Assembly (NCBI GenBank): GCA_046346885.1
Contig: JAXMHI010000008.1
Location: 52,049 to 116,048, forward strand
Length of the DNA stretch: 64,000 nt
Direction of reading: 5' to 3'
Origin: a bacterium
GTDB taxonomy: Bacteria; UBA10199; JADFYH01
Every line of letters begins with the position of its first letter. The stretch's first letter is position 1. The notes below the pieces were generated by a model, which saw only the letters and a program-made list of their open reading frames with translations, was not told where the DNA came from and did not search any database. The position numbers and the translations under genes were made by a program. Of this stretch, positions 16,770 through 61,869 are shown one piece after another.

Positions 16770-16797
16770 GATTCGCGATCGCTGGCAAAGCCAGACG

Positions 16798-16834: not shown

Positions 16835-17077
16835 TTTACCCCATTGGATGAGGAACTTTTATGATTATATAGCCTTATGCCAGTGGGATCTCACTTTTCT
16901 AAAGCACTTGCACTGATTCGTAAAGAATGTTTTAAAAAGACCCCCTTTATCGATAAAATGTAGTTTTCTTTAAAAAGAAAATACCTTATCCGGTGGGGGT
17001 TGAAGGGGGAGACCGGACTTCTCCCCCTGGGTTAGAAGGAGGGTCTGGCTTTGCCAGCCCGAGTGGAATCATCGGAA

Positions 17078-17167
<90 letters not shown>

Positions 17168-17179
17168 TAAAAATTTTTA

Positions 17180-17253
17180 GCGCCCATAGCTCAGTTGGAT
17201 AGAGCGTCGGTCTACGAAACCGAAGGTCGCATGTTCGAATCATGCTGGGCGCG
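17180..17253 (+). tRNA. tRNA-Arg (anticodon ACG)
   Basis: GCGCCCA acceptor, D-arm GCTCAGTTGGATAGAGC, anticodon loop CTACGAA, T-arm GCATGTTCGAATCATGC; 74 nt. Confidence 0.9.
17215..17253 (+). repeat. attL-like 39-bp direct repeat (3' half of tRNA-Arg)
   Basis: CGAAACCGAAGGTCGCATGTTCGAATCATGCTGGGCGCG is identical to 19203-19241. Confidence 0.8.
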
Positions 17254-17388: not shown

Positions 17389-19116
17389 CTAAAGAGACGC
17401 TTTCCTTTTTTGGCGGAACAGGAGCGCGAGAGGGAAAAAGAACACGCCAAGCTGAAGAAGATTCCCGTCTTTCACCGAAGGATTCAAACTGCAACCGCCG
17501 CCTCCGGAGACACTATTACTTCCACCATTATTGGTCCCGGCAGCATTCACTGTGGTTGAGGACGAGGCGGTATTGTTGGCGGTATTCGGATCAAAGTCAT
17601 CACTTCTGACATTCACCGTGTTAGAAACGGAGCCGTTTGCACTTGCGGTGACAATGACAGTGACAAGCGCAGACTCTCCTTTGGCCAGGATTCCGAGGGA
17701 ACAGCTAAGCTGGGGTGCTCCCGAGCAGGTGCCTTGATTGCTGAGAGCATTTACAAACGCGACTTGGCTGGGCAAGTTATCCGTAAGCACCACATTCAAC
17801 GCGGCTTCTGGGCCGTTGTTGGTGACGGTCAAAACATAGGTGATGTCTTGTCCAACTTCCACCGCATCGGGAAAAGCCACTTCGGTGATGGCCAAATCGG
17901 CAACGCCTTGGCCGTATTCGATGGCACCAATATCCACTATACCGTTGATGATGCGATTTTTACCTTCGAAGTCAGTGGAAGGTAAGCCGTCGGGAGGATT
18001 GTTGTCGCCTTTGTTGATGAGAGGTGAGTTTGCTTGGAGGCGATAATCGTCCGCTGCAGGATCTACATATAAAGGATCGCTATTGGCGGAACTCAAAACT
18101 GTGTGTGGTCCTGGAGAATACCCTCCAAAAAATTCGTTAGAATTGAAGAAAAAATTATTGTCGTTATTAATAATCAATTGGGGCGTTGCAGCAGAAGGGA
18201 ATACCACTCCTTCCGGAGTGTTCGTAATGGCATTGTTGTATAGGTTAATGGTCGTTTGATCGGTACCAAACGACGAATAGGTAGCAACCCCGAGATGGTA
18301 TATATTATCGATTGTGTTGTTGACAATATTCGCGACTGTAGTCACCGCATTGGGACTTCCAATGATATTGCTATAACCAATAACGATCGCGGCCGGTGGT
18401 CCGGAAGGCAGTTTTGCCAAGGAGTGAAAGATATTATTGTAGATATTGATTTGCGCATTTCCAACACCCGCCCCATTCGTTTCTACACCAAGAGAATTGA
18501 TAGCTGGGTCCGCAGAAGTGATTTCATTGGCAATAATGGTGATAGTGCTGTTGCCCGGGTTAGATAGCCTATAGTTGTAAGTAATTCCTTTGGGTGAAGT
18601 GATAATTTTATTACCTTGGATCAATACATTATTATCGACGGTAGCATCGATGAATATTCCGGCCTGATTGGTGGAAGCATTATTAGTAAGAGTGCAGTTT
18701 GTCACTGTAACTTGGTCTACACCAAGGTGAGGATGGGAAAAATCAAACTCTAAAGAGGCACCGTTAAAATTGATATGATCAAGATTGATACTGACGGCTT
18801 GATTGTCATTAAAAAAGAGCGTCTGGGGGTTATTAATATTTCCGCTTCCGATTTGAGGTTGAAAGCCTGGGGCCGCAGTTAATGTAATGCTGTTTGTGCT
18901 AATAATGCTTTCATTGATTAAGTTATTCGTCGCAATCTGAATCTCGTCCCCTGAATTTGCACCATTGATACAGGCTTGCAAGGTCGTATCACATGGCGCA
19001 GAACCTGGATAAGCGAGGGTAGCCGCATGGGAAGAAGCGGTACAGACTAGGCTTAAGGCCACAAAGCCCGCCGAGACCCATTTTTTTTTGCCCCAAATGG
19101 AAAAACGAGAATTCAT
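17389..19116 (-). CDS. Secreted right-handed parallel beta-helix protein with DUF11 repeat and C-terminal Gly-rich/TM/basic sorting-like tail
   Basis: Signal peptide MNSRFSIWGKKKWVSAGFVALSLVCTASSHAAT. Asn-rich beta-helix repeats. DUF11-like segment LAITEVAFPDAVEVGQDITYVLTVTNNGPEAALNVVLTD. C-terminal SGGGGCSLNPS...LLQLGVFFFPLALLFRQKRKASL. Internal ATG at 19116 has SD GGAGAAG. Confidence 0.6.
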   Translation of the reverse strand: MNSRFSIWGKKKWVSAGFVALSLVCTASSHAATLAYPGSAPCDTTLQACINGANSGDEIQIATNNLINESIISTNSITLTAAPGFQPQIGSGNINNPQTLFFNDNQAVSINLDHINFNGASLEFDFSHPHLGVDQVTVTNCTLTNNASTNQAGIFIDATVDNNVLIQGNKIITSPKGITYNYRLSNPGNSTITIIANEITSADPAINSLGVETNGAGVGNAQINIYNNIFHSLAKLPSGPPAAIVIGYSNIIGSPNAVTTVANIVNNTIDNIYHLGVATYSSFGTDQTTINLYNNAITNTPEGVVFPSAATPQLIINNDNNFFFNSNEFFGGYSPGPHTVLSSANSDPLYVDPAADDYRLQANSPLINKGDNNPPDGLPSTDFEGKNRIINGIVDIGAIEYGQGVADLAITEVAFPDAVEVGQDITYVLTVTNNGPEAALNVVLTDNLPSQVAFVNALSNQGTCSGAPQLSCSLGILAKGESALVTVIVTASANGSVSNTVNVRSDDFDPNTANNTASSSTTVNAAGTNNGGSNSVSGGGGCSLNPSVKDGNLLQLGVFFFPLALLFRQKRKASL

Positions 19117-19202
19117 TTTTGCTTCTCCTTCTATAAAAATTTCATTAAGAAAAACGGTTAGTTGATGATTCAAAGTCGGGCATTTCGATGATTTTCTCCA
19201 CC

Positions 19203-19241
19203 GAAACCGAAGGTCGCATGTTCGAATCATGCTGGGCGCGT
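19203..19241 (+). repeat. attR-like 39-bp direct repeat (copy of the tRNA-Arg 3' half)
   Basis: Identical to 17215-17253. Confidence 0.8.
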
Positions 19242-19267
19242 TCCCAAAAAAACGAGGGAGTTGCGCG

Positions 19268-20020
19268 ATGGAAAAACTCTCCATCATTGTTCCTGTCTAT
19301 AACGAAGCGGCTCAATTGCGCCAAGTGATTGAGACCTTGATGGCTTCTTACTCTCCAATCCCCCGAGAATGGATTTTCGTCGACGACTGCTCGACGGACC
19401 CAAGCCTCTCTATCCTGCGATCTCATGCATCGCGTTATGGTTATCGTATTTTAACCCAAGAAAAGAATCTGGGAAAAGGAATGGCCGTCATTCGGGGAGT
19501 TCGCGAATCCACCGGAGATATAGTCATGGTCCAGGACGCCGATTTTGAATATGACCCGAATGAAATCCCCTCGTTGCTCGAGCCGATTTTAAAAGGGGAG
19601 GCGGATGTCGTTTACGGCAGCCGTTTCAAAAAGAAGACTCCTGCCTCCCGCCGCACTTGCCATTATTTCGCCAATCGCCTTTTGACGGCCTTGAGCAATG
19701 GGATGTCGGGCCTTCATCTCACCGATATGGAAACCTGTTATAAAGTGTTTCGAGCCGACTTGTTGAAGGCGATGAACTTGAAATCCAAACGCTTTGGGAT
19801 CGAGATCGAGATGACGGCGTATGTGACGAAAGTGCGGGCAAGACTGGAAGAGCGGCCCATTTCTTATCGCCCACGCACTCGTTTGCAGGGGAAAAAAATC
19901 AATTGGAAGGACGGTTTTGCCGCTTTCTTCCATCTCGCGCGCTTTTATTGGTTTACCCCTTTAACCGAAGCTTTTCATGAAGTCCCCCCGCCGTATTCCC
20001 ATTTCCCTAAAAAATTCTAA
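19268..20020 (+). CDS. Family 2 glycosyltransferase (polyprenyl-phosphate sugar transferase / GtrB/DPM1-like)
   Basis: LSIIVPVYNEA...FVDDCSTD...VMVQDADFEYDP...VVYGSRF are GT2 DxD-type motifs. ATG at 19268 has SD GAGGGA. Confidence 0.75.
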   Translation: MEKLSIIVPVYNEAAQLRQVIETLMASYSPIPREWIFVDDCSTDPSLSILRSHASRYGYRILTQEKNLGKGMAVIRGVRESTGDIVMVQDADFEYDPNEIPSLLEPILKGEADVVYGSRFKKKTPASRRTCHYFANRLLTALSNGMSGLHLTDMETCYKVFRADLLKAMNLKSKRFGIEIEMTAYVTKVRARLEERPISYRPRTRLQGKKINWKDGFAAFFHLARFYWFTPLTEAFHEVPPPYSHFPKKF

Positions 20021-21571: not shown

Positions 21572-24500
21572 ATGGAGCGTGCTCAGCTTAACGGGAGTGG
21601 AGAATTTTCTTTGCCCAGCGGCGAGGAATCTTCCGTCCTTCAAGACTCGGTCCTTTCGCGCCTCTCCGCGACCTCGCTTTCGTCCGTCTCTTCGTTGACG
21701 GAAAGCCAGGCGCAAGTGGACGTGCTTGTCGGCCGTTTCGCGGAAGAGGCCACGAATTGGCGGTCGCTCGCCGCCATGGCGACGGGATCGTTGTTCTACC
21801 GATTCGGCCGTATCGGTGCGCTAGCTTTGGCTTCGCGCTTACCCCAGGCGGCTCCTTTGTTCCAGGCGGCGTCCTACGGCGTCGGCTTGGCGACGGAAGT
21901 GGCGGCTTTCGAAGGCTCAAGCCGTTTCTTGGCGTACGCATCCGGAGACCGGTCGAACGCCAATCTTTGGAACTGGAACGGTCGCGGCGGTTGGCGCGAG
22001 GGACTCGCTCATTCTTTCGTGACCTTCGGCATGCTGAAGAGCGTGGGATTTTTAGCGCGCGAACAAAATGTCGTCTTGCAACACACGGTGAGCGATTTGG
22101 CGATGGTGGGCGGCAATCAGGTGGCGGCCGCGTTCGGGTTTGGTCCCCGTCCGGAAGGGAATTTTGCTTCGCAGATGCTGGAAGCGGAAGTAACCAATCT
22201 CCAGCTGGGCGCGGGGATGAGTTTATTGCACGGCGTTGCTCCAGGACTCGCCGCCTTCGAGAGGGCTTTGGATCTTACCGCATCGTCGGCGACGCCGGAT
22301 TTCCGCGCATCCCTTTCAAGTCTTCCGGATTTTTCTCCTTACCGCCCCGCTTATGCGGAAGGGGTGGAGAACTCGGACTCTTCGGTCCGATCTTTGGAGC
22401 CCCAGCGGGGTCCCACGATTTTGCAGATGACGATCGACGACGGGAAAAAGCCGGGCCGAGGCGTCGATACCTTGGATGCGCCTCCTGGTCTTGATCCAGC
22501 CGCCGGCGTTTCCCAACCCCTGCGCCGCAGCCCCCCTCCTCCTCCTTCTCCTCCGGGGCAGCCCATCGTTTTTCAGCCGGGCAGGAAGTTCGGCCCCGAT
22601 AGCGCTTTCCCCGAGGGGCGTTATGAAGTGATCCGTTGGTACGCCCAAGGCGGCTTCGGTAACATTTACCTTGTTCGCGATCATAAATTGAACCGCGACG
22701 TGGCGACAAAGATCCCCCGGGAGAACTTATACACGCAAGAGCATCTGGACCGCTTTCATCGGGAAATTCAGATTACGTCGCAGCTGGAGCTGGACGGGGA
22801 AAGTCTGGCGACCGTGCTCGACTTGGTGACCTTGCCCGAGGGCATGACCATCCCCATCATGAAATTCCTTCCGGGCGACGACTTGCTCAAATTGCGCACG
22901 CAATATTACCAACGGGATCGGGACGTTCTTCGTTTATACCCCTTGGAGCGCCGCATCGAAATTTTCGCGGAAATTTGCAAGATCGTCGATTCGGCCCACG
23001 AACAAGGAGTCATTCATCGAGATTTGAAGCCGGGCAACATCCGCATTCTTCCCGACGGCCGAGTGGTCCTCCTCGATTGGGGGCGGGCGATCAACATTCA
23101 CGGGGAGGAAGTGGTGCCTGGAGAGGAAGATCCGTCCTCCCACCCGAAAGGCTCCGTGCATTTGACCAGTCCCGGAAAGGTGATGGGAACGCCCGGCTAT
23201 ATTCCGCCGGAAGCGGGTTTGCTTCTTCCTCCGGATTCCTCCCCCCGATCCATCGACGTCTTTGCCTTGGGTGTCATTCTTTATGAGTGGATGACGGGCG
23301 TTCATCCCTTCGCCTTTTTCGAGTCCGGCAATACGGTCAGAGGCCAGGCGGAGAAGATCCCCCGTCGAGATCCTCACGGAGAAACGCAAATGAACGAAGT
23401 GGCGTCGTTCATGCGCTTGCCGAAGAACGAGCCTCCTCCCTTTCGGAGTGTGGTGACCGGCGAGCATCCATCCTATTTTTTCGAAATGGAGACCATCGCC
23501 CGCAAAGCCTTCGCCAATGATCCGAAATCCCGTTATTCGACCGCCCGAGAGTTGCGGGAAGCGGTGCTCATGGCGAGGGCCCAAGTCACCCGCCGCCGCA
23601 TTCATACCATCCAGGAGGAGATCGACCGTCTTCGGGAACAAGCGGAGCACGAGTGGGAAATTCTGCGTCATTCCCCGCAAGTGAAGAACGAAGCCCAGTG
23701 GGCGCGCATGCACGATCCCCTCTACGCGATGGTGGAGCTCCGACAGGAATGGCGCGAGTTGGCCCGCGGCGTCACGAACTACTTAAGTGGGAAACTCCAC
23801 CTGCTTTCCCAGCCGGAAATTGCGCGGGGCCTCATCGCCGAAATGAACTGGCTGCTGCTCATCGACGGCGGCGACCGCATGCCGCAGCAAGTTCGCGAGG
23901 AGCTGATGCAGACCATCCGGGAGAACGATTTGCCCAACGAGCAGGGAAGGGATTTCGGTTTCGCCCGCGCCTTGGAAGGGGATGCCTCGCTGCGTTTGCG
24001 GGTCCGAGATTTTTTTTCGGGGAAGGGTTTGGCCGCCTCCGAACTCAAAGTGAAAATCATTCCGCTGGTTCGGGAAGTGGGGAAGAACGGAAGGGAAACG
24101 CTCAATTTTCGTGAGGGACAAGAGGTCGAATTCGAGGGAGAAGATCTCCGGTCTCTAAGGCTTCCCGCGGGTTATTATATCGCGCAGGTTTCGCGCCCCG
24201 GATATGCGACGGCGAGGGTCCCCTTGGAAGTGACGCTCGATCAAGTCCGGCAGGGCCTTTTCTCCCAAGGGGATCTGCCTTGGGAAGTGGAGATGGTGCC
24301 GGTGGAGGAGGTGCCCGAGGGGTTTCGTTTGATTCACCAAGGAGTCGCCACGCTCGGTTATAATATTTTCCACGGCGAGATGCCCACCGACGTTTATAGT
24401 TCTCCCGAAAGAAAAATGCCCTTCCAATCCTTTTTGGCCAAAGAATTTCCGGAGACGGTTCAAGAGTACGTCACTTATATCGAAGATCGGCTCAACACGA

Positions 24501-25285
24501 TCAACGTGGCTCTGCAAAAGGGAAACATGGAGCGCGTGCGGCGCATCTTAAAAGAGGTGAGGGAGGCGGTGCCCAGGGCCCAGGCGACGGTACCCGACGC
24601 CCTGCCGGAGGACTTGTCCAAGTCTTTCGAAGGATTAAACCTTTACTGGCGCATCCGTTCACGGGGAAGTTTGGAGGAGAGAAATCTAAGATTTTTCATG
24701 GAGGATCCCACGTCTCATCCCGATCCGAACGGCGATCCCATGCGCGCTCGACAACCGATCAACGCGATTTCATATTTGGGAGGCGAGTCTTACGCGCGTT
24801 GGTTGAGCCGCACCCACGGGGTTCGGTATGAAATCGCCTCCGCGGAACAAGAAGAGATCATGGCCCGTAGCGCCCTGCCGTTTCCCTATCCGTGGGGATA
24901 CCGTTTCAATCCCTTTTATGTGGTTTCCCGTTCGGTCTTCTCCGATCTCATCAAAGGCACCTATCCCCAAGACGTGGGAACTCATCCTTTGGGGCAAGGG
25001 CAATATCGGGATTATTCCCTCGTTTACGGCATCCGGGATTTGATCGGCAACGTGCGTCGTTCCACCTCGACCCAGGTGGAGCCGGATACTCCCGCGAGTG
25101 AATCCACTCCCGCTCAACCGGGCACCATCTTCGTGAAAGGGGGATCTTTGCGGGTTCTTTGGGGGCCTTTCTTCCGGGCGGGGGTGGAGGCCCATGTGCG
25201 GAAAAACATCGCCGATGCCAGCATGGGAGGTTTCCGTCTTGTCGTCAATCTGACGGATCGGCGTTATTCTCCAAGAGTTCCTTAA
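21572..25285 (+). CDS. Paralog A: conserved N-module + Pro-rich linker + Ser/Thr protein kinase (DWG variant) + PEGA + FGE-sulfatase-like C-terminal domain
   Basis: 1237 aa. N-module (aa ~45-245) is 80-95% identical to the other two paralogs. Kinase motifs GGFGNIY, VATKI, HRDLKPGN, DWG, GTPGYIPPEA. PEGA-like LRLPAGYYIAQVSRPGYATARVPLEV. C-terminal YPWGY...GNV...KGGS...GFRLV matches the FGE/SUMF1 fold but lacks the catalytic Cys pair. Confidence 0.8.
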   Translation: MERAQLNGSGEFSLPSGEESSVLQDSVLSRLSATSLSSVSSLTESQAQVDVLVGRFAEEATNWRSLAAMATGSLFYRFGRIGALALASRLPQAAPLFQAASYGVGLATEVAAFEGSSRFLAYASGDRSNANLWNWNGRGGWREGLAHSFVTFGMLKSVGFLAREQNVVLQHTVSDLAMVGGNQVAAAFGFGPRPEGNFASQMLEAEVTNLQLGAGMSLLHGVAPGLAAFERALDLTASSATPDFRASLSSLPDFSPYRPAYAEGVENSDSSVRSLEPQRGPTILQMTIDDGKKPGRGVDTLDAPPGLDPAAGVSQPLRRSPPPPPSPPGQPIVFQPGRKFGPDSAFPEGRYEVIRWYAQGGFGNIYLVRDHKLNRDVATKIPRENLYTQEHLDRFHREIQITSQLELDGESLATVLDLVTLPEGMTIPIMKFLPGDDLLKLRTQYYQRDRDVLRLYPLERRIEIFAEICKIVDSAHEQGVIHRDLKPGNIRILPDGRVVLLDWGRAINIHGEEVVPGEEDPSSHPKGSVHLTSPGKVMGTPGYIPPEAGLLLPPDSSPRSIDVFALGVILYEWMTGVHPFAFFESGNTVRGQAEKIPRRDPHGETQMNEVASFMRLPKNEPPPFRSVVTGEHPSYFFEMETIARKAFANDPKSRYSTARELREAVLMARAQVTRRRIHTIQEEIDRLREQAEHEWEILRHSPQVKNEAQWARMHDPLYAMVELRQEWRELARGVTNYLSGKLHLLSQPEIARGLIAEMNWLLLIDGGDRMPQQVREELMQTIRENDLPNEQGRDFGFARALEGDASLRLRVRDFFSGKGLAASELKVKIIPLVREVGKNGRETLNFREGQEVEFEGEDLRSLRLPAGYYIAQVSRPGYATARVPLEVTLDQVRQGLFSQGDLPWEVEMVPVEEVPEGFRLIHQGVATLGYNIFHGEMPTDVYSSPERKMPFQSFLAKEFPETVQEYVTYIEDRLNTINVALQKGNMERVRRILKEVREAVPRAQATVPDALPEDLSKSFEGLNLYWRIRSRGSLEERNLRFFMEDPTSHPDPNGDPMRARQPINAISYLGGESYARWLSRTHGVRYEIASAEQEEIMARSALPFPYPWGYRFNPFYVVSRSVFSDLIKGTYPQDVGTHPLGQGQYRDYSLVYGIRDLIGNVRRSTSTQVEPDTPASESTPAQPGTIFVKGGSLRVLWGPFFRAGVEAHVRKNIADASMGGFRLVVNLTDRRYSPRVP

Positions 25286-25375: not shown

Positions 25376-25585
25376 ATTTGTTTTTATTTTCTAATAAAGA
25401 AAAAGAGTTTTTCCCCTTTTCTCCGGGTGATTTTTTACTTTTTTTATTCTCTCCTCTCTCTGTGACAAACAATCATAATTATTTGATTTTATTTAATTTT
25501 TTTAAAAATGCCTAAAAGGGCATGGCCTTTGCGTAACAGTCCCCCCGGGTGTGTGATTTTTTTACTCATGAAAAAGGGGGATGGA

Positions 25586-25891
25586 ATGAATAAAAAATCA
25601 ATTATTATCATGGTGTTATTATTCTCATGGATCGGTCTTTCCACTGTCGCCCGGGCGGAAACCATTGCTGAGAGAAATCTCAAATCCACCTTCGGTTCCT
25701 CCGTCATTTATCAAAACCAAGGGCCCCAATTTATGCCGACCGGCTTGGTTCAAAACCAGGGGCCTCAGTTTATGCCGACGAGTACGGTGGAAAATCAGCC
25801 GCCTCAATTCATGCCGGTGGGAACGGTTCAAAATCAGGGGCCCCAGTTTATTCCCGTCAATTGGCGTTATAACCAGCCTCCGCAGTTTTAG
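25586..25891 (+). CDS. Small secreted tandem-repeat protein (QNQGPQFMP repeats)
   Basis: Signal peptide MNKKSIIIMVLLFSWIGLSTVARA. Five imperfect 13-aa repeats (V)QNQGPQFMPTGL. SD AAGGGGGA upstream of the ATG at 25586. Confidence 0.6.
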   Translation: MNKKSIIIMVLLFSWIGLSTVARAETIAERNLKSTFGSSVIYQNQGPQFMPTGLVQNQGPQFMPTSTVENQPPQFMPVGTVQNQGPQFIPVNWRYNQPPQF

Positions 25892-25918
25892 ACCTTGTTT
25901 CTTCTCCGGGTTGTTGCA

Positions 25919-25953
25919 AGGCCCGTATCGGTGTTTTTTTACCGGTGCGGGCC
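25919..25953 (+). terminator. Putative terminator hairpin after the small repeat-protein gene
   Basis: GGCCCG...CGGTGTTTTTTTACCG...CGGGCC nested inverted repeats with a T-run. Confidence 0.35.
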
Positions 25954-26063
25954 TTCTTATTTGCGGAAATTTCTTTGATTTTCTGGCAACCTTCCCCCTT
26001 GCAGGCCGATAGGGCTTAGACTCCACCATTGTTTTTTCCTTAAGGATTGGTTCGGGTTTGTTT

Positions 26064-29000
26064 ATGACCTTTGGCTCCTCCATTTTTCGTTCGGCCCCGG
26101 ATGCCACTTTGCCGGATCATACGGAGACGCTACTCTCCCGTTTCTCTTCCCATTCTTTAGTCAATGATTCTTCCTTGAGTGCTTCCCAAGCGCAGGTGGA
26201 CGGTCTTGTGAGTCGTTTCACGGAAGAGGCGACGAATTGGCGGTCTTTGGCGGCGATGGCGACGGGTTCTTTGTTTTATCGCTTCGGCCGCATCGGTACC
26301 TTGGCCTTGGCCTCGCGCCTGCCTCAAGCGGCGCCTCTGTTTCAAGCGGCGTCCTACGGCATCGGTCTTGGGGCGGAAGTGACGGCTTTCGAAGGATCGA
26401 GCCGTTTCTTGGCGTATGCCTCGGGAGATCGATCGAACGCCAACTTGTGGAGGTGGAGCGGGAGAGGCGGATGGAGCGAGGGTTTGTCTCATTCCCTCGT
26501 CACCTTCGGCATGCTGAAGAGCTTCGGCCATTTGGGGAGCGAGCAGAATGTTGTTTTGCAACACGTGATGTCGGATTTGGGGATGGTGGGAGGGCATCAG
26601 GTTTCCGCCGCGTTGGGATTCACGCCTCGTCCCGAGGGGAGCCTTGCCTCACAATTCCTAGAAGCGGAGATTACCAATCTACAGCTCGGCGCGGGGATGA
26701 GCTTGTTGCACCTGGCGTCGCCCCGTCTGGCCGCTTTCGAACGGGGATTGGATCTTTCCATCCGCGCGCGGGAAACGACGGGCGCCCCGAATCGGAATTT
26801 AGAAAATTTTTTCGGGCCTCAAGAACAGCTTGTGTTCGACGGTGCGCCCGTGAGCCGAGAAACATTTGCGCCGGAGAACCCTTTTGAGGGACCTCAGATT
26901 CTTCTCATGTCTTCGAAAGAAGGCCCTAATAACGGAAAAGGAACGATTCCCGATCCGTCGAAGGTTCAACGCCCCGATTCGGTAATGGAAGTGACTCCTT
27001 CGATGATGGTTCCTCCTTCCGGCGTGGGGGTGGAAGGCCTCTCGAACGGAGAGGAGGTTGCGGATGGAGAAGTGATTCCAGGGGTTCCGATACGGGTGGT
27101 ATCCGAATCGGCATTGGCGCCGACTTCTCCGGCCCCGCCGGCGGTGGCGCCTGTCGTTATTAAACCCGGGGATGCCGATGCCGCGGCTGTGGATGCGGAT
27201 CCGCAGAGTGTGGGCGATCAACGGACCGTCGTGCGTCCCCTCCAACTTCCGCTTCCACCGGCCGTTCCGAACGGCGTCAGGGCGGGGGGCGCGGAAACCT
27301 TGCGCGAACAAGAAGTCGTTTCGAAGCTTTCCATCGCGCCTCCTCCCTCGGGAACCGTGGAAAGCGGAATGATCTTGGCGGGTCGCTACGAAGTGAAGGA
27401 ATTTCTCGGCGCTGGCGGTTTCGGAAACGTCTACAAGGTTCTCGATCAGCGCTTGGGCCGCATCGGCGTGATCAAGGTGCCGAGAGCCGAGATGGATACG
27501 GTCGAGTTCAGGCCGCGCTTCTCGAATGAAATCCGCATTACCGCCGCCCTCGATCCGCGTCGGGTCGTGGGGGTTTACGATTTGATCGAGCTCGCCGACG
27601 GGCGGCTCATCCCCGTGATGGAATACGTGCCCGGGCATGACCTCTCGGACATCGTGGGTCAACTCTCCGTAAGCCGCCGTTTGGAAATCTTCGCCGAGAT
27701 TTGCGAAGGGGTGGCTTCCGCCCATCGGAGAGGTTTCGTTCACCGTGATTTAAAGCCCGCCAACATCCGCATTACCTCCGACGGCCACGTGAAAATCATG
27801 GACTGGGGCCTGGCCAAACCGCTCGACGAAGTGACCGCGGGTGAAGGAGGGGCGGTCCCCACGGACCTTTCCGCGCGACTGAAAAGAAATTTGACCGTAG
27901 GAGGGGGCGGCATGCCCTTCGGGACGCCCGGATACATTGCCCCCGAGGCGTTTTTAGGCGGGAAGATTCCCAACCCGCGCTCTCTCGATAACTTCGCGTT
28001 GGGCGCCATTCTCTATGAGATGATGAGCGGGCGGCATCCTTTCGTGGACGATTGGAGCGAGCAGCGGGCCGTCGCCAATTACATGTCGACCCATCCTTCC
28101 GTGATCAGGCCCGTCTCGGAATTTAAGGATGTCCTCATCGGCGACTATCCGCCCATCGTTTACGAGGTGGAACCCATCGCCCGGCGCAGCCTGGAAAGAG
28201 AGCAGGCGAAACGTTTTCAAAACGCCCTCGAGATCCGCGATGCCGTGTTGATGGCACAGGCCCGCGTCGAGTTTAGGGCCATCGGCGAGGTGCGCACCGA
28301 AATGAAGCGGCTCGCCGCCCGGATGGTGGAGGCCTGGGATCATTTTGATCCTTCCCACCAAATCGACTCGAATTATTGGGATCAAGAAATGTATCAAACC
28401 CTCTACGACGTGAGGGATCGCCGCGCTGCCATGGACCAGCGGGCCATCGACTTGATCGCGCAGCTGGCGGAAATCAAGGTCGTGCTCACCGACCCCAACC
28501 CGGCCAAGAAGATGATCGCGGAGCTCTCTTGGATGCGCTTACTTTATGGGGGAGACCGGATGCCGGAGGGGCAGAGGCGGCTCCTGATCGACGCCATCTC
28601 GAAAAATGACGTCGCTACGGCGGAAGAAAAGATTCCCAGCATGAAGCTCGCGCTGGAAACGCCGCTTGGGATGGAGATCCGAGCGACCGATTGGCGGACC
28701 GGAAAATCCCTTTTTCAAGACGGGAGCTCCTTATATCACATGAACGTCAAGGTGCTTCCCTATGAACGGGACCGTTTGGGGAATTACAGCGAAGGGGCTC
28801 CCCTTTTAGACGGCCCTTTGGCGACCGTGCTTCCGCAGATGCACTTAAAGGCGGGATATTACGTGATCGAGGTTTCTTATCCCGGCTATGCGCCCATGCG
28901 AGTTCCTTTCCACATGAGGCTCAAGGACGTGCGGCGCGGTTTGCTGGAGGAGAAGCCCCATCTTCTGAATTTGGAGTTTATCCCTCAAGACCTCGTCCCT

Positions 29001-29939
29001 TCCGATTTCGACGTCATTCATGGCGGCTACGGCTACATCGGTCACGATTATATTTACGAAGGCGATCCCGCAAACGGTTACAGTCAACCGCTCCGGAAGG
29101 TGCAATACTCGACTTATGCGATTTCCCGGGTGCCCCCGCGGGTCCGTGATTATAAGGTTTTCATCGATTCGGAGTTGAGCATGGCCAACGCCTTGATCCG
29201 CGCCGGAAAGATCCGCGACGCGGGAATCCTGCTCAATCGTCTGAGGAATTTCATTCCGAGAAACCAGGCGGTGCCGCAAATTCCCGAAGACCGGATCACC
29301 GACGATCCGGCGACGCTCGTGCCTCTTTTCGAGAAGACCCCTTATTTGTGCTGGAGAGTGCGCATTCATCAAGAAGACGGTCTTCCCCAATTCTCGCTCA
29401 TCGACCCCTGGACCCACCATGACCGGGAGAACGGAGGGTATCCGATCTTGGAGCACGCCTCCGTGAGCGCGATTCCTTATCAAGCGGTGGAGGCGTTTCG
29501 GGATTGGCGGCGCGACCGGGACAATAGGGATTATGAAATCATGTCCGCAGAGGAAAACGAGATCATGGCCCGCGGTTCGTGGGAGCTCCCCTATCCTTGG
29601 GGCTACCATCCCAATCCCGCCTATTTAGTCTCCCGCTTGGTATTCGAAGATACTTGGAAAGACTCCTATCCCCGTCCTGTGGGTTCCCATCCCATGGGGC
29701 AACACCATTATCGCGATCGTTCGCCGTTCGGTCCCATTGACGTTTTGGGAAATACTCGAAAATGGACCTCGACCGTGATGGAGCCCGACGTCAATGCCAT
29801 GGCGGGTTTGTCCGTGAGGACGGGAACGGGGCCTTACGGGAATCCGGACTCCCGAACCTTAGGATCGACTGATAACTGGGCGGTGGATGCTAATGGTTCC
29901 TTCCGGCTTGTGCTGCGTTTTCCCCGCCGGAATCCATAA
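26064..29939 (+). CDS. Paralog B: conserved N-module + linker + Ser/Thr protein kinase (DWG variant) + PEGA + FGE-sulfatase-like domain
   Basis: 1293 aa. N-module nearly identical to paralog C. Kinase motifs GAGGFGNVY, VIKV, HRDLKPAN, DWG, GTPGYIAPEA. PEGA-like HLKAGYYVIEVSYPGYAPMRVPF. C-terminal YPWGY...GNTRKWTST...GSFRLV. The ATG at 26064 gives an MTF... start like paralog C. Confidence 0.8.
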   Translation: MTFGSSIFRSAPDATLPDHTETLLSRFSSHSLVNDSSLSASQAQVDGLVSRFTEEATNWRSLAAMATGSLFYRFGRIGTLALASRLPQAAPLFQAASYGIGLGAEVTAFEGSSRFLAYASGDRSNANLWRWSGRGGWSEGLSHSLVTFGMLKSFGHLGSEQNVVLQHVMSDLGMVGGHQVSAALGFTPRPEGSLASQFLEAEITNLQLGAGMSLLHLASPRLAAFERGLDLSIRARETTGAPNRNLENFFGPQEQLVFDGAPVSRETFAPENPFEGPQILLMSSKEGPNNGKGTIPDPSKVQRPDSVMEVTPSMMVPPSGVGVEGLSNGEEVADGEVIPGVPIRVVSESALAPTSPAPPAVAPVVIKPGDADAAAVDADPQSVGDQRTVVRPLQLPLPPAVPNGVRAGGAETLREQEVVSKLSIAPPPSGTVESGMILAGRYEVKEFLGAGGFGNVYKVLDQRLGRIGVIKVPRAEMDTVEFRPRFSNEIRITAALDPRRVVGVYDLIELADGRLIPVMEYVPGHDLSDIVGQLSVSRRLEIFAEICEGVASAHRRGFVHRDLKPANIRITSDGHVKIMDWGLAKPLDEVTAGEGGAVPTDLSARLKRNLTVGGGGMPFGTPGYIAPEAFLGGKIPNPRSLDNFALGAILYEMMSGRHPFVDDWSEQRAVANYMSTHPSVIRPVSEFKDVLIGDYPPIVYEVEPIARRSLEREQAKRFQNALEIRDAVLMAQARVEFRAIGEVRTEMKRLAARMVEAWDHFDPSHQIDSNYWDQEMYQTLYDVRDRRAAMDQRAIDLIAQLAEIKVVLTDPNPAKKMIAELSWMRLLYGGDRMPEGQRRLLIDAISKNDVATAEEKIPSMKLALETPLGMEIRATDWRTGKSLFQDGSSLYHMNVKVLPYERDRLGNYSEGAPLLDGPLATVLPQMHLKAGYYVIEVSYPGYAPMRVPFHMRLKDVRRGLLEEKPHLLNLEFIPQDLVPSDFDVIHGGYGYIGHDYIYEGDPANGYSQPLRKVQYSTYAISRVPPRVRDYKVFIDSELSMANALIRAGKIRDAGILLNRLRNFIPRNQAVPQIPEDRITDDPATLVPLFEKTPYLCWRVRIHQEDGLPQFSLIDPWTHHDRENGGYPILEHASVSAIPYQAVEAFRDWRRDRDNRDYEIMSAEENEIMARGSWELPYPWGYHPNPAYLVSRLVFEDTWKDSYPRPVGSHPMGQHHYRDRSPFGPIDVLGNTRKWTSTVMEPDVNAMAGLSVRTGTGPYGNPDSRTLGSTDNWAVDANGSFRLVLRFPRRNP
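26178..26770. repeat. Left arm of a ~590-bp near-identical inverted repeat (N-module coding DNA of paralog B)
   Basis: The same out-of-frame ORF translation (MAVFGGDGDGFFVL...GDELV) appears at 26237-26887(+) and 33435-34130(-). This implies >95% nucleotide identity in inverted orientation. Confidence 0.75.
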
Positions 29940-30166
29940 TTTTCCTCAAATTTTTTAAAGATGGGCTCAATGGACTAAAATGATATTTAATTTTGGTTCC
30001 TAAAGTCCCCACCCGCGTCATTATTTTGACTGGTCCCTAAATCATGCTTAAATTGTTAAAATAATTAACTCTTTTTAAGTAATCCTTCCTTTTTTCATGA
30101 AAAAAATTGGGTGAAAACACCTCACTTTGATCAAGTCTTAACAAGTTTGAAATAACTATAAATATA

Positions 30167-30178
30167 TGATATTTAATT
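30167..30178. promoter_or_regulatory. AT-rich motif TGATATTTAATT, also at 29981-29992 and similar to the 25354-25375 palindrome
   Basis: Two exact copies lie upstream of the second small repeat-protein gene, within a 320-bp AT-rich region; a similar TAATATTATTTAGTT lies upstream of the first. Confidence 0.35.
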
Positions 30179-30258
30179 GAAATCTAAAAAACGCCCCCTA
30201 TGGCATAAGATCTGCTTCATTATCAACGGGTTGGTGATCATAAAAGGAGGATAGATTC

Positions 30259-30711
30259 ATGAGAAAAGGATTTTCGCTTTTTATTTTGGGTGCGGTCTTA
30301 TTGGCTTTCCAATCAGCGGGGTTTACGGAGGAAGTGGCCCACGATATGCAATTTTGCAGTCAGAAGAACGTGGATGAGCTCACCGTTAACGAATTGAAAG
30401 ACTGCGTCACTCACTTCAAAAAAACCATTAGCGCGAAAAACGGAAACATCTTGGAGATGGCTCCCCAAACCTTGACGGAAATGCCGCCTCAAACCTTGAC
30501 GGCGATGCCGCCGCAAACCGTCAATGCGATGCCGCCGCAGACGGTGAATGCCATGCCCCCGCAAACAATCAACGGAATGGCGCCGCAGACGATCACGGCG
30601 ACTCCCGTTTTCATGGCGCCTCAAACGATCAACGCGATGCCTCCCCAGACGATCAACGGGGTGAACTCGGTGATCGAGAAAAAAGGCATGGCCCCCCAAA
30701 CGCTGCGCTAA
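30259..30711 (+). CDS. Small secreted tandem-repeat protein (MPPQTxxA octapeptide repeats)
   Basis: Signal peptide MRKGFSLFILGAVLLAFQSAGF. About 9 tandem repeats of MPPQT(L/V/I)(T/N)(A/G). Strong SD AAAAGGAGGA. Confidence 0.65.
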   Translation: MRKGFSLFILGAVLLAFQSAGFTEEVAHDMQFCSQKNVDELTVNELKDCVTHFKKTISAKNGNILEMAPQTLTEMPPQTLTAMPPQTVNAMPPQTVNAMPPQTINGMAPQTITATPVFMAPQTINAMPPQTINGVNSVIEKKGMAPQTLR

Positions 30712-30736
30712 GAATAAAAAAGGAATCGTGGAAGAA

Positions 30737-30766
30737 AAGGCCCCCTTGTGGGGCCTTTTTTATTTT
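30737..30766. terminator. Bidirectional intrinsic terminator between the repeat-protein gene and corA
   Basis: GGCCCCC-ttgt-GGGGGCC perfect hairpin followed by TTTTTTATTTTT. Confidence 0.7.
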
Positions 30767-30776
30767 TGACGGAAAG

Positions 30777-31769
30777 CTAAAGCCACTTCTTTTTCTTGAA
30801 AAAGAAAATCATGCCTCCCGCCACCCCGATCATGATGAACCAGAGGAGATAATAAAAACCCTTCCAGTGGAATTCGGGCATGTAGTCGAAGTTCATGCCG
30901 TAGACGCCCACGATGAAGGTTAAGGGAAGGAAGATCGTGGCGGCGATGGTCAAGCGCTGCATGACGAAATTCAGATTGTTGGAAGACTCAGTCATCTTGA
31001 TGGAAAGCATGGCGGCATAAACGTCGAAGACCGACGCGGCGTGTTCCTTCAAACTTTCGAGTTCCTGCAGGAGCACCTGCATGTCGTCGAGCACATTCTT
31101 GAAGTAGGGCCGCGCCTCCGCGGAGATGCAAGGCAGGCTCTTTTCGTAGAGCTGCTTGATCACGTCGCGCTCGGGCAAGAGGTTTTTGCGCATGGTGGTG
31201 ACGAGCTTCTTGAATTGCAGAATTTGGTCGAGAATTTTCTCATGGGCACCTTTCAATACCTGGTGCTCGATTTCCTCGAGCATTTCCTGCCACTGTTCGA
31301 TGACGGGTTCGTGGTCTTTTACGGCGAGGTCCAAAAGGTGGAAGAGGACGTAAGGTGTCCCCTTGCCGAGCGTTTCTTGCGGTTCTTCCCGCACCCGTTC
31401 CCTCGCGGTGCCGAACGTGCGCGCCAAGTGGGCCCGGTGGATCGTGACGATGAACTGTTCGGAGAAAAACACTTCGAATTCGCGTCGCTCGCACTCTTCC
31501 CGATCGAAGTGGTAGAAGACCCGGTGCAACACGAGGAAAGCATAGGTCTCATAGAGGTTGATTTTCGGTACTCCCGCCATGCTCTTCACGTCTTCGACGG
31601 CCAGGGGGTGGAAACGGAAGACGGAATCCAGGATTTCCAATTCCGAGTCGGTGGGTTCGTCCAAGTCCACCCACACGCGGCGACGGTCGTTCAACGCTTC
31701 TTCGAGAAGTTTCAGGTCGTGGGTTTCGACGAGTTGTCCCGTTTCGGAAAAAAGCAGGATATGCAGCAT
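30777..31769 (-). CDS. corA: Magnesium/cobalt transporter CorA
   Basis: C-terminal two TM helices with the YGMNF (GMN) motif; 330 aa. Confidence 0.85.
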   Translation of the reverse strand: MLHILLFSETGQLVETHDLKLLEEALNDRRRVWVDLDEPTDSELEILDSVFRFHPLAVEDVKSMAGVPKINLYETYAFLVLHRVFYHFDREECERREFEVFFSEQFIVTIHRAHLARTFGTARERVREEPQETLGKGTPYVLFHLLDLAVKDHEPVIEQWQEMLEEIEHQVLKGAHEKILDQILQFKKLVTTMRKNLLPERDVIKQLYEKSLPCISAEARPYFKNVLDDMQVLLQELESLKEHAASVFDVYAAMLSIKMTESSNNLNFVMQRLTIAATIFLPLTFIVGVYGMNFDYMPEFHWKGFYYLLWFIMIGVAGGMIFFFKKKKWL

Positions 31770-31828
31770 GCGTTTTCGCTCCCTTTACGGGGCACTATAG
31801 CATGCCGGTTTAAAATCCCTCATTCATT

Positions 31829-34285
31829 TTATGGAAGGCGTCCCAGCTCGGTTGGCAAGAGTGATTCATGTCCCTTCCTTCGCAAGGCACGGCGAAGAAC
31901 GGCCCAGCCGGGATATGAATCTTGGAGGAGGAAGAGGGATTCCCAGTAAGGGTGAATTTCCAAGAAGAAGTCTTTCCCAAGCTCGCTTCCGTCTTCACCG
32001 GTCAAGGCGAGCAGTTCCCAAGAGTAGCCGGCTTGAGAAAGTTCCCGCTCCTTTTCCGGCGAGAGGGTAATCCTTCGTTGGGCAAGGTAGGCTCGGAAAG
32101 AGTTTTTTAATTCTTCGCCTATTTCGGGAAGGACGTAGTCGAATCCCATCTTGGGCCAGAAAGCCCCCCCTTGTTTTCCAACGGGCACTTCATAGTTGGC
32201 GATTCCCATTCTTTTGAGGAAGAGAAGTTCGTTGGCCACGATGACGCCGCCGATGCCTTGTTGCTTGAATTCCGGCCGCACGTCCAATCCTCTGCCCTTG
32301 GCATAGGGACGGAAATTTTTTTGGGGGGAAAAATGGATTTCGCGATGGAAATCGGCCACGTCTCTGCCTGTTTCTTCCGTCACGACCAGGCCCGAGAAAG
32401 AGACTCGGTCGCTGAAGGTGTTGAAGGAGAGTCTTCCGATTTTATAACCGGAGGGAAGGCGGTAAAAAAGGGCGAGAGCTTCTTCTACGGAGGGGGCCGA
32501 AAGGGGAAAGGCGCGTTGCAGACGCGCGAGAGGGGTTGTGCTTCTTTCCGTGACCTTCTTGTGATTGATGACGAGCGTGCCGCGGCGTTCCTCCGCGATT
32601 CTTAGGGAGCTCGCGATCTCCTCCGGGAAAGGGTAGGGCGCTTCCGTGGAATCGAGCGCCTCCCGAAGCAATCTCCAACCCGGATATCCCGCGTCCAAAT
32701 CGAAACTGGTGAGCCACGAGCAGGGTTCATAACGGCTTAAAAATTCGCGGCCCACCTCGCGGTTGTTGCGCATCTTGAAGTGCGCCAACTCCCAACTGTG
32801 TTCGATGAGTGTAAGCCTCGCGTCTTCCCGGGGGGAAAGGGAGATGCGTTGTTCGGCCAGGTATTCACGGAATTGCATGAGTTTCTTTTCCCGCGTTGCT
32901 GCATCCACGAAATCGAAGCCGCGTGTGGCCCAGAAGTGGCCGCCGTTTCTCCCCGCAGGGACGAAGAACGTGGAAACCCCGAGCTCCCGGAAGAAGAGGA
33001 GGTCCGAAAGGGTGAGATGAGTTCCCAAACCCTTGCCGCGCTCATGTTCTCCGAATACCTCCAGGCCGTCCCCCATCGCGACGAGTAGCGGCCGGGTGGC
33101 ATCCACGTTCATTTGGATGACGCGGCGATAGGTGGCCTTGCCGAGTCCGTTCTCGCCCAAGAAATCCCCTTCAATTTTCAAAGCTCCGTTGCTCATTTCT
33201 TGGAAACTGATGTGGCGGACGGGAAAACGGGGATGCGTATGGGTGAGCCATGAAAGAATTTTTTCCAAGTCGATTCTTCTGCCCGCCCTTCGCGATAAGA
33301 CGCGTTGCAAGGGGCCTAAATCGCCTTCGAGAAGCCGGCCGTTTACCACCAGCCGCGTGCCGGGCGGGAGAGAGGCTGTCGGGGGATTCGGGAGACGCTC
33401 GACCGGAGGTAGGGGCTCTAAGCGCGAGGAGCTTTTACCCGTTTCTCCCTCCGAGGGACGAATCATAATGGCGGCCAGGGGGCGGGAAAGCGTTTCCGAT
33501 AAAGACGCGGGTTCTATCGCTGCGTGTGGAACTCCTTCCACAGCGGCTTCCATCCGCCAAGCATTTTGGAAGTGGCGCGTGCTGGGAGGGGTTTCGTTTG
33601 CGGCGATGGAAAGATCCAATCCCCGTTCGAAAGCGGCCAGACGGGGCGACGCCATGTGTAACAAGCTCATCCCCGCGCCGAGCTGTAGATTGGTAATCTC
33701 CGCTTCTAGGAATTGTGAGGCAAGGCTCCCCTCGGGACGAGGCGTGAATCCCAACGCGGCGGAAACCTGATGCCCTCCCACCATCCCCAAATCCGACATC
33801 ACGTGTTGCAAAACAACATTCTGCTCGCTCCCCAAATGGCCGAAGCTCTTCAGCATGCCGAAGGTGACGAGGGAATGAGACAAACCCTCGCTCCATCCCC
33901 CTCTCCCGCTCCACCTCCACAAGTTGGCGTTCGATCGATCTCCCGAGGCATACGCCAAGAAACGGCTCGATCCTTCGAAAGCCGTCACTTCCACCCCAAG
34001 ACCGATGCCGTAAGAGGCCACTTGAAAGAGCGGTGCCGCCTGAGGCAGGCGCGAGGCCAAGGCCAAGGTGCCGATACGGCCGAAGCGGTAGAACAAAGAA
34101 CCCGTCGCCATCGCCGCCAAAGACCGCCAATTCGTCGCCTCTTCCGTGAAACGACTCACAAGACCGTCCACCTGCGCTTGAGCGGCGCTTAGGGGCCGGG
34201 TGCGTTCGTTTTCCAGGGACGAAGCGGTAATGCGATCCAAAACCGAGGGGCTTGAGGATCCGTCGAAAGTAAATGAAAAAGTCAT
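31829..34285 (-). CDS. Paralog C: conserved N-module fused to two tandem GNAT-like acyltransferase domains
   Basis: 818 aa. N-module ~98% identical to paralog B. Two repeats containing GNAT motif A-like ERGKGLGTHL / KQQGIGGVIV and motif B-like GGHFWATRGFDFV / GGAFWPKMGFDYV. Confidence 0.75.
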   Translation of the reverse strand: MTFSFTFDGSSSPSVLDRITASSLENERTRPLSAAQAQVDGLVSRFTEEATNWRSLAAMATGSLFYRFGRIGTLALASRLPQAAPLFQVASYGIGLGVEVTAFEGSSRFLAYASGDRSNANLWRWSGRGGWSEGLSHSLVTFGMLKSFGHLGSEQNVVLQHVMSDLGMVGGHQVSAALGFTPRPEGSLASQFLEAEITNLQLGAGMSLLHMASPRLAAFERGLDLSIAANETPPSTRHFQNAWRMEAAVEGVPHAAIEPASLSETLSRPLAAIMIRPSEGETGKSSSRLEPLPPVERLPNPPTASLPPGTRLVVNGRLLEGDLGPLQRVLSRRAGRRIDLEKILSWLTHTHPRFPVRHISFQEMSNGALKIEGDFLGENGLGKATYRRVIQMNVDATRPLLVAMGDGLEVFGEHERGKGLGTHLTLSDLLFFRELGVSTFFVPAGRNGGHFWATRGFDFVDAATREKKLMQFREYLAEQRISLSPREDARLTLIEHSWELAHFKMRNNREVGREFLSRYEPCSWLTSFDLDAGYPGWRLLREALDSTEAPYPFPEEIASSLRIAEERRGTLVINHKKVTERSTTPLARLQRAFPLSAPSVEEALALFYRLPSGYKIGRLSFNTFSDRVSFSGLVVTEETGRDVADFHREIHFSPQKNFRPYAKGRGLDVRPEFKQQGIGGVIVANELLFLKRMGIANYEVPVGKQGGAFWPKMGFDYVLPEIGEELKNSFRAYLAQRRITLSPEKERELSQAGYSWELLALTGEDGSELGKDFFLEIHPYWESLFLLQDSYPGWAVLRRALRRKGHESLLPTELGRLP
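33600..34190. repeat. Right arm of the ~590-bp inverted repeat (N-module coding DNA of paralog C)
   Basis: See the left arm at 26178-26770. Confidence 0.75.
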
Positions 34286-34342
34286 AAATTCCCGTTACTT
34301 ATCCTGCAAGGATTCTTATCGAACGGGGGCTTGAAGAGTTGT

Positions 34343-61860: not shown

Positions 61861-61869
61861 GTACCGTGA

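Follow-up and report, generated by a model that had tools for sequence, protein, structure and literature searches.

Two convergent genes in the bacterial DNA analyzed here, a stretch of 64 kb referred to as the window, carry N-terminal coding regions that the initial annotation described as an almost identical inverted repeat. The genes, here named paralog B and paralog C, differ in their remaining parts, which raises the question of how one domain of each came to be so similar at the DNA level and whether the segment between the two copies acts as a switch. Two answers had been offered, namely a shufflon-like expression switch and recent gene conversion that homogenizes the module.

Genes and regulatory elements of the locus

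Paralog B (positions 26064 to 29939, + strand) encodes a protein of 1291 amino acids, identical to library protein P0156, in which a Ser-rich leader is followed by the N-module, a Pro-rich linker, a Ser/Thr kinase domain, and an FGE-sulfatase-like domain. The oppositely oriented paralog C (31829 to 34285, − strand; NCBI U1F57_07120, P0163) encodes 818 amino acids, comprising a leader, the N-module, and an orphan C terminus that consists of two repeats of ~250 amino acids with a GNAT-like R/QxxGxG motif. This C-terminal cassette has no sequence match in the PDB and no homolog besides itself. A third gene, paralog A (21572 to 25285, + strand; 1237 amino acids), shares the architecture of B; its NCBI start is probably codon 14, and its kinase/FGE part shares 35% protein identity with the counterpart in B. 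Searches with NCBIfam and PADLOC returned generic kinase-domain matches in A and B and none in C or the small ORFs, and an Rfam search of the 64-kb window found three tRNAs and nothing else.

The segment bracketed by the two N-modules contains the kinase/FGE part of B, a gene for a small repeat protein, corA, and the C-terminal part of C. This agrees with the content given in the initial annotation apart from the label "GNAT" for the C cassette, since the corresponding match is weak (Acetyltransf_7, E = 0.057, in one of the two halves). The small secreted protein, encoded 3′ of B and inside the segment (30259 to 30711, + strand), has 150 amino acids and is composed of a signal peptide and ~10 copies of the 8-amino-acid repeat MPPQT.NA. 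The gene for the Mg2+ transporter CorA (30777 to 31769, − strand; PF01544, E = 7e-63) is located downstream of C, also within the segment. The middle of the segment, where the two transcription units converge, contains a bidirectional terminator-like hairpin with a 12-bp stem (30733 to 30761).

Both B and C possess an ATG start codon, a Shine-Dalgarno-like sequence, a family-typical leader, and a separate upstream region. Upstream of B, a strong terminator-like hairpin with a 16-bp stem (25918 to 25955, + strand) implies that the gene is transcribed from its own promoter within 25956 to 26063. The start codon of C is separated from the M15 peptidase gene by 57 nt (34286 to 34342, − strand) that contain no predicted terminator, and C may be cotranscribed with hisB-hisH-M15. 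Two candidate signals in these regions were dropped: in the candidate sigma-54 promoter TGGCAA...TTGCA upstream of B, GG and GC are 14 nt apart where a spacing of 10 nt is required, and the palindromes TCCTTAAGGA and TCCTTGCAGGA, found ~20 nt upstream of the start codons of B and C, do not represent a family signal, with a frequency of 14% upstream of family genes versus 15% in the background.

Extent and borders of the inverted repeat

A repeat search identified inverted arms at 26173 to 26776 and 33591 to 34194, each of 604 nt, that are 96% complementary and separated by 6814 nt. This pair was the only significant one among the inverted repeats between 25300 and 35300; the others comprise 14 to 26 nt with 73 to 93% identity, and none is located at the borders. 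Direct comparison of the core arms, i.e., 26187 to 26762 on the + strand (N-module of B, QAQVD...GLDLSI) and 34180 to 33605 on the − strand (N-module of C), yielded 97.4% identity with 15 mismatches in 576 nt, which confirms the near-identical inverted repeat. Over the 50 to 200 nt adjoining either end of the core, identity amounts to 24 to 29% and thus to the random level, and this fall from 97% spans few bases at both ends. Homology of A to B and to C ends at the borders of the B-C repeat as well, and the reading frames of B and C are unbroken across both repeat junctions.

The module DNA of paralog A (21707 to 22279) is 76 to 79% identical to either arm and hence, as had been noted before, clearly more diverged. 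Identity between B and C is far above chance and above the family norm described below, and it also exceeds the level of ~80% that the initial annotation had named for A versus B. The shared out-of-frame ORFs pointed out there, at 26237 to 26887 and 33435 to 34130, do exist, and both start with (L/M)AVFGGDGDGFFVL; their likeness is a trivial consequence of the identical DNA of the arms.

The N-module family

The N-module is a conserved, all-helical N-terminal region of ~190 amino acids that is preceded by a short S(V/I)LSR(L/F)S leader and followed by a low-complexity linker. Paralogs A, B, and C align with homologs at the motifs QxQVD, GLGAEVTAFE, NxxxQH, LHAEATNLQLGAGM, and LERGLDLS. A profile of the module covers 913 cluster representatives from metagenomes, in all of which it is N-terminal. 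The AF2 model reaches a pLDDT of >90 throughout. Neither Pfam nor NCBIfam has a model for the module, and the PDB yielded no fold neighbor. A classic transmembrane anchor was considered and rejected, as Kyte-Doolittle values for 19-amino-acid windows stay below 1.6 throughout.

The C termini of the family include kinase plus FGE, GGDEF, histidine kinase, PAS, aminotransferase, PS decarboxylase, cNMP-binding, HPr, and metallophosphatase domains, and many are without a Pfam match. The combination of a conserved N-terminal module, variable C termini, and arrays of paralogs resembles polymorphic toxins and effectors, but neither toxin nor immunity domains nor secretion system genes were seen with the N-module family.

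Family genes occur in arrays of up to five, with a direct arrangement at 21 loci and a divergent one at 4. Elsewhere, paralog pairs within one locus (n = 30) are 52 to 75% identical, and the median between loci is 62%. Across ~100 related loci, no other paralog pair exceeds 79% over the full module, and no near-identical inverted pair is present. Because the modules of related paralogs are 52 to 79% identical and mostly stand in direct tandem arrays, the B-C pair is a one-off rather than a family design. Scans of GTDB and metagenomes yielded family loci at ≤58% protein identity and no DNA from the same species. In the nearest relatives (MurA 86% and 83% identical), only murA-hisD-SAM_HAT is kept, and the A/B/C locus is absent within 9 to 10 kb downstream of murA.

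Synonymous divergence and distribution of mismatches

Synonymous divergence (dS) between B and C is 0.09, compared to 1.2 to 1.3 for A-B and A-C, which argues for homogenization at the level of DNA and not for selection on the protein. Comparisons with A gave a dN/dS of ~0.1, indicating purifying selection. The earlier suggestion that something maintains the identity of the N-module therefore applies to the B-C pair alone, the only one with homogenized synonymous sites, given that the pairs with A keep a dS of 1.2 to 1.3; the similarity of A is explained by purifying selection.

Of the 15 mismatches, 12 (10 synonymous and 2 Ala/Val exchanges) fall into a patch of 99 nt at 26276 to 26374 (+ strand; counterpart in C, 33993 to 34091), in which identity is 88%. 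It is preceded by a perfect tract of 89 nt (26187 to 26275) and followed by a stretch with three mismatches (26375 to 26762) that harbors perfect tracts of 93, 239, and 50 nt. This clustering is nonrandom (max-chi2 permutation, 0/300; P = 0.004 for the longest mismatch-free run, which has 239 nt), as expected for a mosaic of conversion tracts, and the pattern in the alignment points to at least two such tracts. Outside the module, homology between the leaders of B and C is only weak (14/48 identical, z = 4.6), and no significant similarity exists between their linkers; B and C are therefore old paralogs in which the module was recently overwritten.

Probable gene conversion between B and C

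We consider recent gene conversion between B and C by homologous recombination the best explanation and a probable one. Of the two answers offered initially, it is the one supported by the dS contrast, the clustered mismatches, and the leaders and linkers typical of old paralogs. B and C display what is expected of converted genes, i.e., synonymous near-identity with divergence below that of other paralogs and identity confined to the homologous segment. According to our model, the N-module DNA of both genes was homogenized recently by non-reciprocal, putatively RecA-type homologous recombination. Conversion tracts would end where prior homology of the paralogs ends, which would account for a repeat that stops exactly at the module borders. 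The perfect tracts around the 88% patch suggest either two or more events that differ in age or a small conversion that came afterwards from a further paralog.

A parallel is provided by tufA and tufB of Salmonella enterica, which reportedly undergo concerted evolution by RecA-dependent gene conversion. Inversion by crossover between the tuf copies is a known alternative outcome. As in the tuf pair, the B-C copies are inverted, reside on one chromosome, and show about a dozen differences (12 in 1185 nt for tuf and 15 in 576 nt for B-C), identity is limited to the homologous segment, and the differences follow contiguous tracts. In contrast to tuf, homogenization of B and C concerns one domain of otherwise unrelated multidomain genes, the distance between the copies is 6.8 kb instead of 762 kb, there is no evidence of selected identity, and the role of RecA is putative. 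For the 1185-nt inverted tuf duplicates with their 12 differences, conversion tracts were described as contiguous and as arising once per 10^5 to 10^6 generations, and in recA strains the selected changes dropped strongly (Paulsson et al. 2017, PMC5485169).

Two aspects speak against the model. If the prior identity of B and C was ~77%, as for A-B, mismatch repair should pose a strong barrier to the first conversion, so that the initial event would have been rare or would have begun from a less diverged pair. Furthermore, conversion tracts in the tuf model abort on reaching the ends of homology (PMC5485169); by analogy, high identity up to both ends would need several overlapping events or another route. 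Taken alone, the B-C repeat is of little importance, since such outcomes of homologous recombination between paralogs are ordinary and well understood.

Alternative explanations

The closest alternative is a single recent segmental copy with no ongoing process, in which module DNA would have passed once from one gene into the other and the patch would result from patchy heteroduplex correction or from later import from a third paralog. It differs from the favored explanation in the number of events alone. The uniqueness of the B-C pair among ~100 loci fits a single copy, as there is no sign of sustained homogenization in the family, and at least three further paralogs on other contigs of the metagenome-assembled genome (MAG) (U1F57_08720, _01485, and _11310) are possible donors of the patch. 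In the alignment of the patch, C equals A at four of the first five sites and B equals A at six of the last seven, which hints at two separate small imports. However, 12 differences in 99 nt versus 3 in 477 nt cannot have arisen by mutation after the event, and with >96% of tuf conversion tracts being contiguous (PMC5485169), one event would rarely leave an internal unconverted patch. We thus regard a single copy as unlikely.

Under the gene conversion model, the arms, in which perfect tracts extend to 239 nt, should be good substrates for reciprocal crossover as well. Such a crossover would invert 26763 to 33604 and exchange the promoters and leaders of the kinase cassette and the GNAT-like cassette. 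The topology is as originally proposed, with the promoter and leader of B joined to the C cassette and vice versa. We regard inversion of the 6.8-kb segment as mechanistically possible, as an unselected by-product rather than a programmed switch.

Shufflon-type switches (R64 Rci/sfx, Hin/Gin, and Bacteroides invertible promoters) depend on a dedicated recombinase that acts at crossover sites ~19 to 31 bp long. Inversion at the B-C locus would likewise join a constant N-terminal part to one or another C-terminal part, but the repeat is a coding domain of 576 bp, and neither a recombinase nor short sites were found. A Pfam search of ~40 of the larger ORFs across the window revealed no recombinase, integrase, or invertase domain; a few ORFs, located at 53583 to 57298 and 61866 to 63777, gave no Pfam match. 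As both genes, moreover, have their own start, leader, and upstream region, a shufflon-like expression switch is not supported.

A programmed inversion might also proceed via homologous recombination. In Campylobacter fetus, sap inversion reportedly takes place between conserved 5′ regions of opposed sapA homologs. By this analogy, the ~600-bp 5′ regions of B and C would be kept identical for RecA-dependent flipping of the segment, and each flip would re-pair promoter and leader with the kinase or the GNAT-like cassette and thereby alter the effector in a given regulatory context. Both systems share opposed homologs with a conserved 5′ coding region of ~600 bp, differing 3′ parts, a bracketed segment of ~6 kb, and homologous rather than site-specific recombination. 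The geometry of the locus (a near-identical 576-bp 5′ coding region with 6.8 kb between the copies) fits, perfect tracts as long as 239 nt offer RecA ample homology, and the upstream contexts are unlike, with B behind a strong terminator and C 57 nt behind hisB-hisH-M15 and maybe operon driven.

The differences, on the other hand, are considerable. The sap system has one promoter inside the invertible segment and otherwise silent cassettes, whereas the 5′ ends of B and C face outward and, judging from the sequence, neither gene is silent, each having an ATG, a Shine-Dalgarno-like sequence, and a family-typical leader. All sap homologs carry the conserved region, while paralog A is diverged and, with a DNA identity of only 77 to 79%, unable to take part. 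B and C each have their own leader and upstream region, and inversion would cause no obvious change of phenotype; its products would differ from the present proteins only in a leader of 35 to 41 amino acids and three module residues. In addition, this layout is absent from all other family loci (~100 related loci), and no protein combining the B leader with the C cassette, or the reverse, was present among the fetched sequences. A sap-type switch is therefore improbable.

An assembly artifact, i.e., a module misjoined or duplicated by the metagenome assembler or an arbitrary orientation of the segment, has a very small probability. The source is a MAG, and the identical tract of 239 nt exceeds the usual k-mer sizes, so that the orientation of the segment would have hung on read-pair resolution. 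However, the copies differ at 15 positions, have unique flanks on both sides, and run in frame into long ORFs (1291 or 818 amino acids) with family-typical leaders; hairpin chimeras are perfect and terminal, and the B-C repeat is neither.

Finally, selection on protein or codon usage alone, without recombination, has next to no probability: the module is indeed under strong purifying selection (A-B dN/dS, ~0.1; 25 invariant columns in a 15-sequence alignment), but synonymous sites stay free, and the dS contrast under the same constraint (~1.2 for A versus B or C and 0.09 for B-C, with 239 identical bases) refutes this explanation.

Implications for the locus and the N-module family

In a more far-reaching scenario, homologous recombination within the module (conversion, inversion, and deletion in tandem arrays) would be a general route of diversification in the family, with B and C caught in the act, and would bring leaders and promoters together with different enzymatic cassettes at the C terminus. 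The module would be a built-in recombination handle and, in the protein, a domain with a new fold for targeting or anchoring, and the 6.8-kb segment would flip at a measurable frequency. We give this scenario little chance; if true, flipping would place a kinase and an orphan acetyltransferase-like protein in another regulatory context.

The repeat also carries a warning, as the orientation of the segment from 26.8 to 33.6 kb in the MAG may be polymorphic or assembler dependent. The N-module family is the more promising subject than the repeat itself, which draws attention to an uncharacterized module with a confidently predicted structure and diverse signaling and metabolic fusions.

Inverted repeat in the genes of paralogs B and C

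A repeat search across the window returned one large inverted repeat (26173-26776 and 33591-34194; 604 nt, 96% complementary) with a spacing of 6,814 nt between its arms. Base-by-base comparison placed the true repeat at 26187-26762 versus 34180-33605, i.e., 576 nt with 15 mismatches (97.4% identity). The ragged ends of the 604-nt extension are noise, and 50 to 200 nt beyond either end of the repeat, identity is at the random level (24 to 29%). The repeat is real and far above chance, and the near-identity of the B and C module DNA reported in the initial annotation was borne out by the alignment, which also showed sharp borders. The same holds for the greater divergence of gene A, in which a third copy (21707-22279, + strand) shows 76 to 79% DNA identity to either arm. 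The two out-of-frame open reading frames (ORFs) pointed out previously are present and have their first residues in common, which is a trivial consequence of the identical DNA of the arms.

The arms code for a conserved N-terminal module (N-module) found in the three paralogs. A (21572-25285, + strand, 1,237 amino acids) and B (26064-29939, + strand, 1,291 amino acids) have the same architecture, with a Ser/Thr kinase and an FGE-sulfatase-like domain following the module, and share 35% protein identity outside it. In C (31829-34285, − strand, 818 amino acids; U1F57_07120 in the source metagenome-assembled genome [MAG], whose MurA is MFO1519400.1), the module is followed by orphan tandem GNAT-like repeats. 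This C-terminal cassette (31829-33370, − strand, residues about 306 to 818) is an internal tandem duplication with a unit of ~250 amino acids, each unit carrying a GNAT-like R/QxxGxG motif. Its Pfam match is marginal (Acetyltransf_7, E = 0.057), a search of 5.8 billion proteins gave no homolog except itself, and a PDB sequence search gave no match; the cassette is an orphan.

B and C are convergent, and the arms enclose the kinase/FGE part of B, a 150-amino-acid secreted repeat protein, a bidirectional terminator hairpin (30733-30761), corA, and the C cassette. Since a strong terminator hairpin (25918-25955) precedes B, this gene must have its own promoter. The start codon of C lies 57 nt downstream of an M15 peptidase gene, within the same-strand run hisB-hisH-M15-C-corA.

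Synonymous divergence and probable gene conversion

Nei-Gojobori estimates over 190 module codons gave a dS of 1.22 and a dN of 0.12 for A-B, 1.29 and 0.13 for A-C, and only 0.09 and 0.007 for B-C. Between A and B or C, synonymous divergence has reached saturation, whereas B and C are almost untouched at these sites under equal protein constraint. This contrast indicates that the similarity of A stems from purifying selection and that the B-C identity reflects recent homogenisation at the DNA level. Twelve of the 15 mismatches fall inside one divergent patch (26276-26374), around which perfect tracts of 89, 93, 239, and 50 nt extend. The clustering was not reached in any of 300 shuffles (max-chi-square permutation), and the longest mismatch-free run in the repeat was also significant (P = 0.004). 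The leaders of B and C are weakly homologous (14 of 48 positions identical, z = 4.6) and both keep the family-typical motif S(V/I)L.R(L/I/F)(S/T), and their 70-amino-acid linkers show no significant similarity, which argues that the two genes had long diverged before the event. One module, of either B or C, would have been overwritten from the other, probably more than once and no further than the homology already present.

The B-C pattern is the signature of gene conversion. Recent conversion between the convergent paralogs, probably in at least two events, is therefore the best explanation and in our judgment a likely one; the dS contrast, the clustered mismatches, and the long-diverged flanks all favor this alternative from the initial annotation. 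A comparable published layout is that of tufA and tufB (PMC5485169), with 1,185-nt inverted copies differing at 12 positions; contiguous tracts form there once per 10^5 to 10^6 generations, and recA strains show far fewer of the selected changes. A one-off copy followed by a small import at a later time appears unlikely.

Potential for inversion

The topology proposed earlier is correct: if the arms crossed over, 26763-33604 would be inverted, bringing the promoter and leader of B to the C cassette, and the reverse. Such an inversion is mechanistically plausible given perfect tracts as long as 239 nt; with a module just 77 to 79% identical in DNA, A cannot be a partner. Nothing, however, speaks for a programmed switch, and the suggested shufflon-like one could not be upheld. 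Among ~40 of the larger ORFs of the 64-kb window, Pfam scans identified housekeeping genes (hem, radA, prfA, prmC, murA, hisD, hisBH, bioBFAD, RNR, and others) without any recombinase, the repeat search found no short crossover-type repeats flanking the segment, and B and C each possess a start codon and a leader of their own. Moreover, the inverted state would encode two proteins nearly the same as the present ones. The A/B/C locus is absent from the nearest relatives (MurA 86% and 83% identical) in the 9 to 10 kb examined downstream of murA. A sap-like, RecA-dependent switch is distinctly improbable, and inversion is a possible, unselected by-product. That the repeat is an assembly artefact is very hard to believe, and selection on protein or codon usage as the cause of the modules' likeness is refuted by the dS values and practically discounted.

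Other features of the window

Downstream of both kinase-FGE paralogs lies a small gene whose product has a signal peptide and consists of tandem peptide repeats. The gene after A (25508-25891, + strand) encodes four to five copies of QNQGPQFMPTG.V (39-nt DNA repeat, 25711-25866), and the gene after B (30259-30711, + strand) encodes ~10 copies of MPPQT(L/V/I)NA (24-nt DNA repeat, 30457-30663). Neither gave a Pfam, NCBIfam, or PADLOC match. The kinase/FGE-like protein and the secreted repeat peptide (substrate or ligand?) may form a conserved two-gene unit.

At 16683-17253 and 18000-20000, three clustered tRNA genes adjoin a low-GC stretch (42 to 49% versus about 56% elsewhere) encoding a DUF11 surface-type protein and a GT2 glycosyltransferase. 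L078 (MurA 86% identical), the nearest relative among those whose DNA was fetched, differs from the window in the genes past murA-hisD-SAM_HAT, and an SLT-LysM gene located within ~5 kb there lies ~28 kb further on here, which suggests that this region is variable. In a 1,669-amino-acid protein (47978-52987, − strand), a Ser/Thr kinase is joined to a STAND-like AAA region, TPR repeats, a GAF domain, and a sigma-54 activator domain with an HTH.

The N-module family

Library scans found no Pfam or NCBIfam model for the N-module. A family profile built from 15 sequences and searched against 1.84 billion proteins matched 913 cluster representatives, always beginning within the first ~60 residues of proteins of up to 3,930 amino acids. 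In the 71 metagenome loci (mainly from three JGI metagenome sets) and 3 GTDB loci fetched, family genes form arrays containing at most five copies; 21 loci have direct arrays and 4 have divergent ones. Distant relatives occur in uninterrupted same-strand arrays of four to five genes (L001, 6554-20546; L003; L004, 2967-10501), in which every gene opens with the N-module and the C termini are all different and mostly unannotated. Across the family, most C termini have no Pfam match; the others include kinase plus FGE, GGDEF, histidine kinase, PAS, aminotransferase, PS decarboxylase, cNMP-binding, HPr, metallophosphatase, cysteine dioxygenase, and HTH.

Module DNA identity was 52 to 75% among same-contig paralogs (30 pairs) and had a median of 62% between contigs, with partial tracts of 86 to 89% in a few cases (e.g., L014/L032 and within L030). 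No pair among the family loci approached the B-C identity, so there is neither family-wide homogenisation nor conservation of the inverted layout. Among metagenome-derived proteins, P0003 and P0008 are identical in leader and early module and then diverge, and P0012 and P0017 are identical in the C-terminal 80 amino acids and different in the N-terminal half; such mosaics would fit recombination between family members of other genomes. On other contigs of the source MAG lie at least three further N-module genes (U1F57_08720, U1F57_01485, and U1F57_11310; P0002, P0031, and P0033), two of these three being short, frameshifted-looking fragments. These genes may have donated the divergent patch of the repeat.

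A second short conserved motif, [GR]P.I[LI].M[ST]....G..G, lies in the low-complexity linker ~55 amino acids past the module, at about 26900-26960 in B (EGPQILLMSSKEGPNNGKG) and 22400-22460 in A (RGPTILQMTIDDGKKPGRG), and in the homologs P0001, P0004, P0010, and P0015, possibly as a site of processing or docking. Given that the module always sits at the N terminus, and given the conserved motif at the extreme N terminus, this linker motif, and the diverse fused domains, we speculate that the N-module serves in targeting, docking, or scaffolding. The uncharacterised N-module family deserves more attention than the repeat itself, which as a DNA phenomenon belongs to a known kind and is only modestly interesting.
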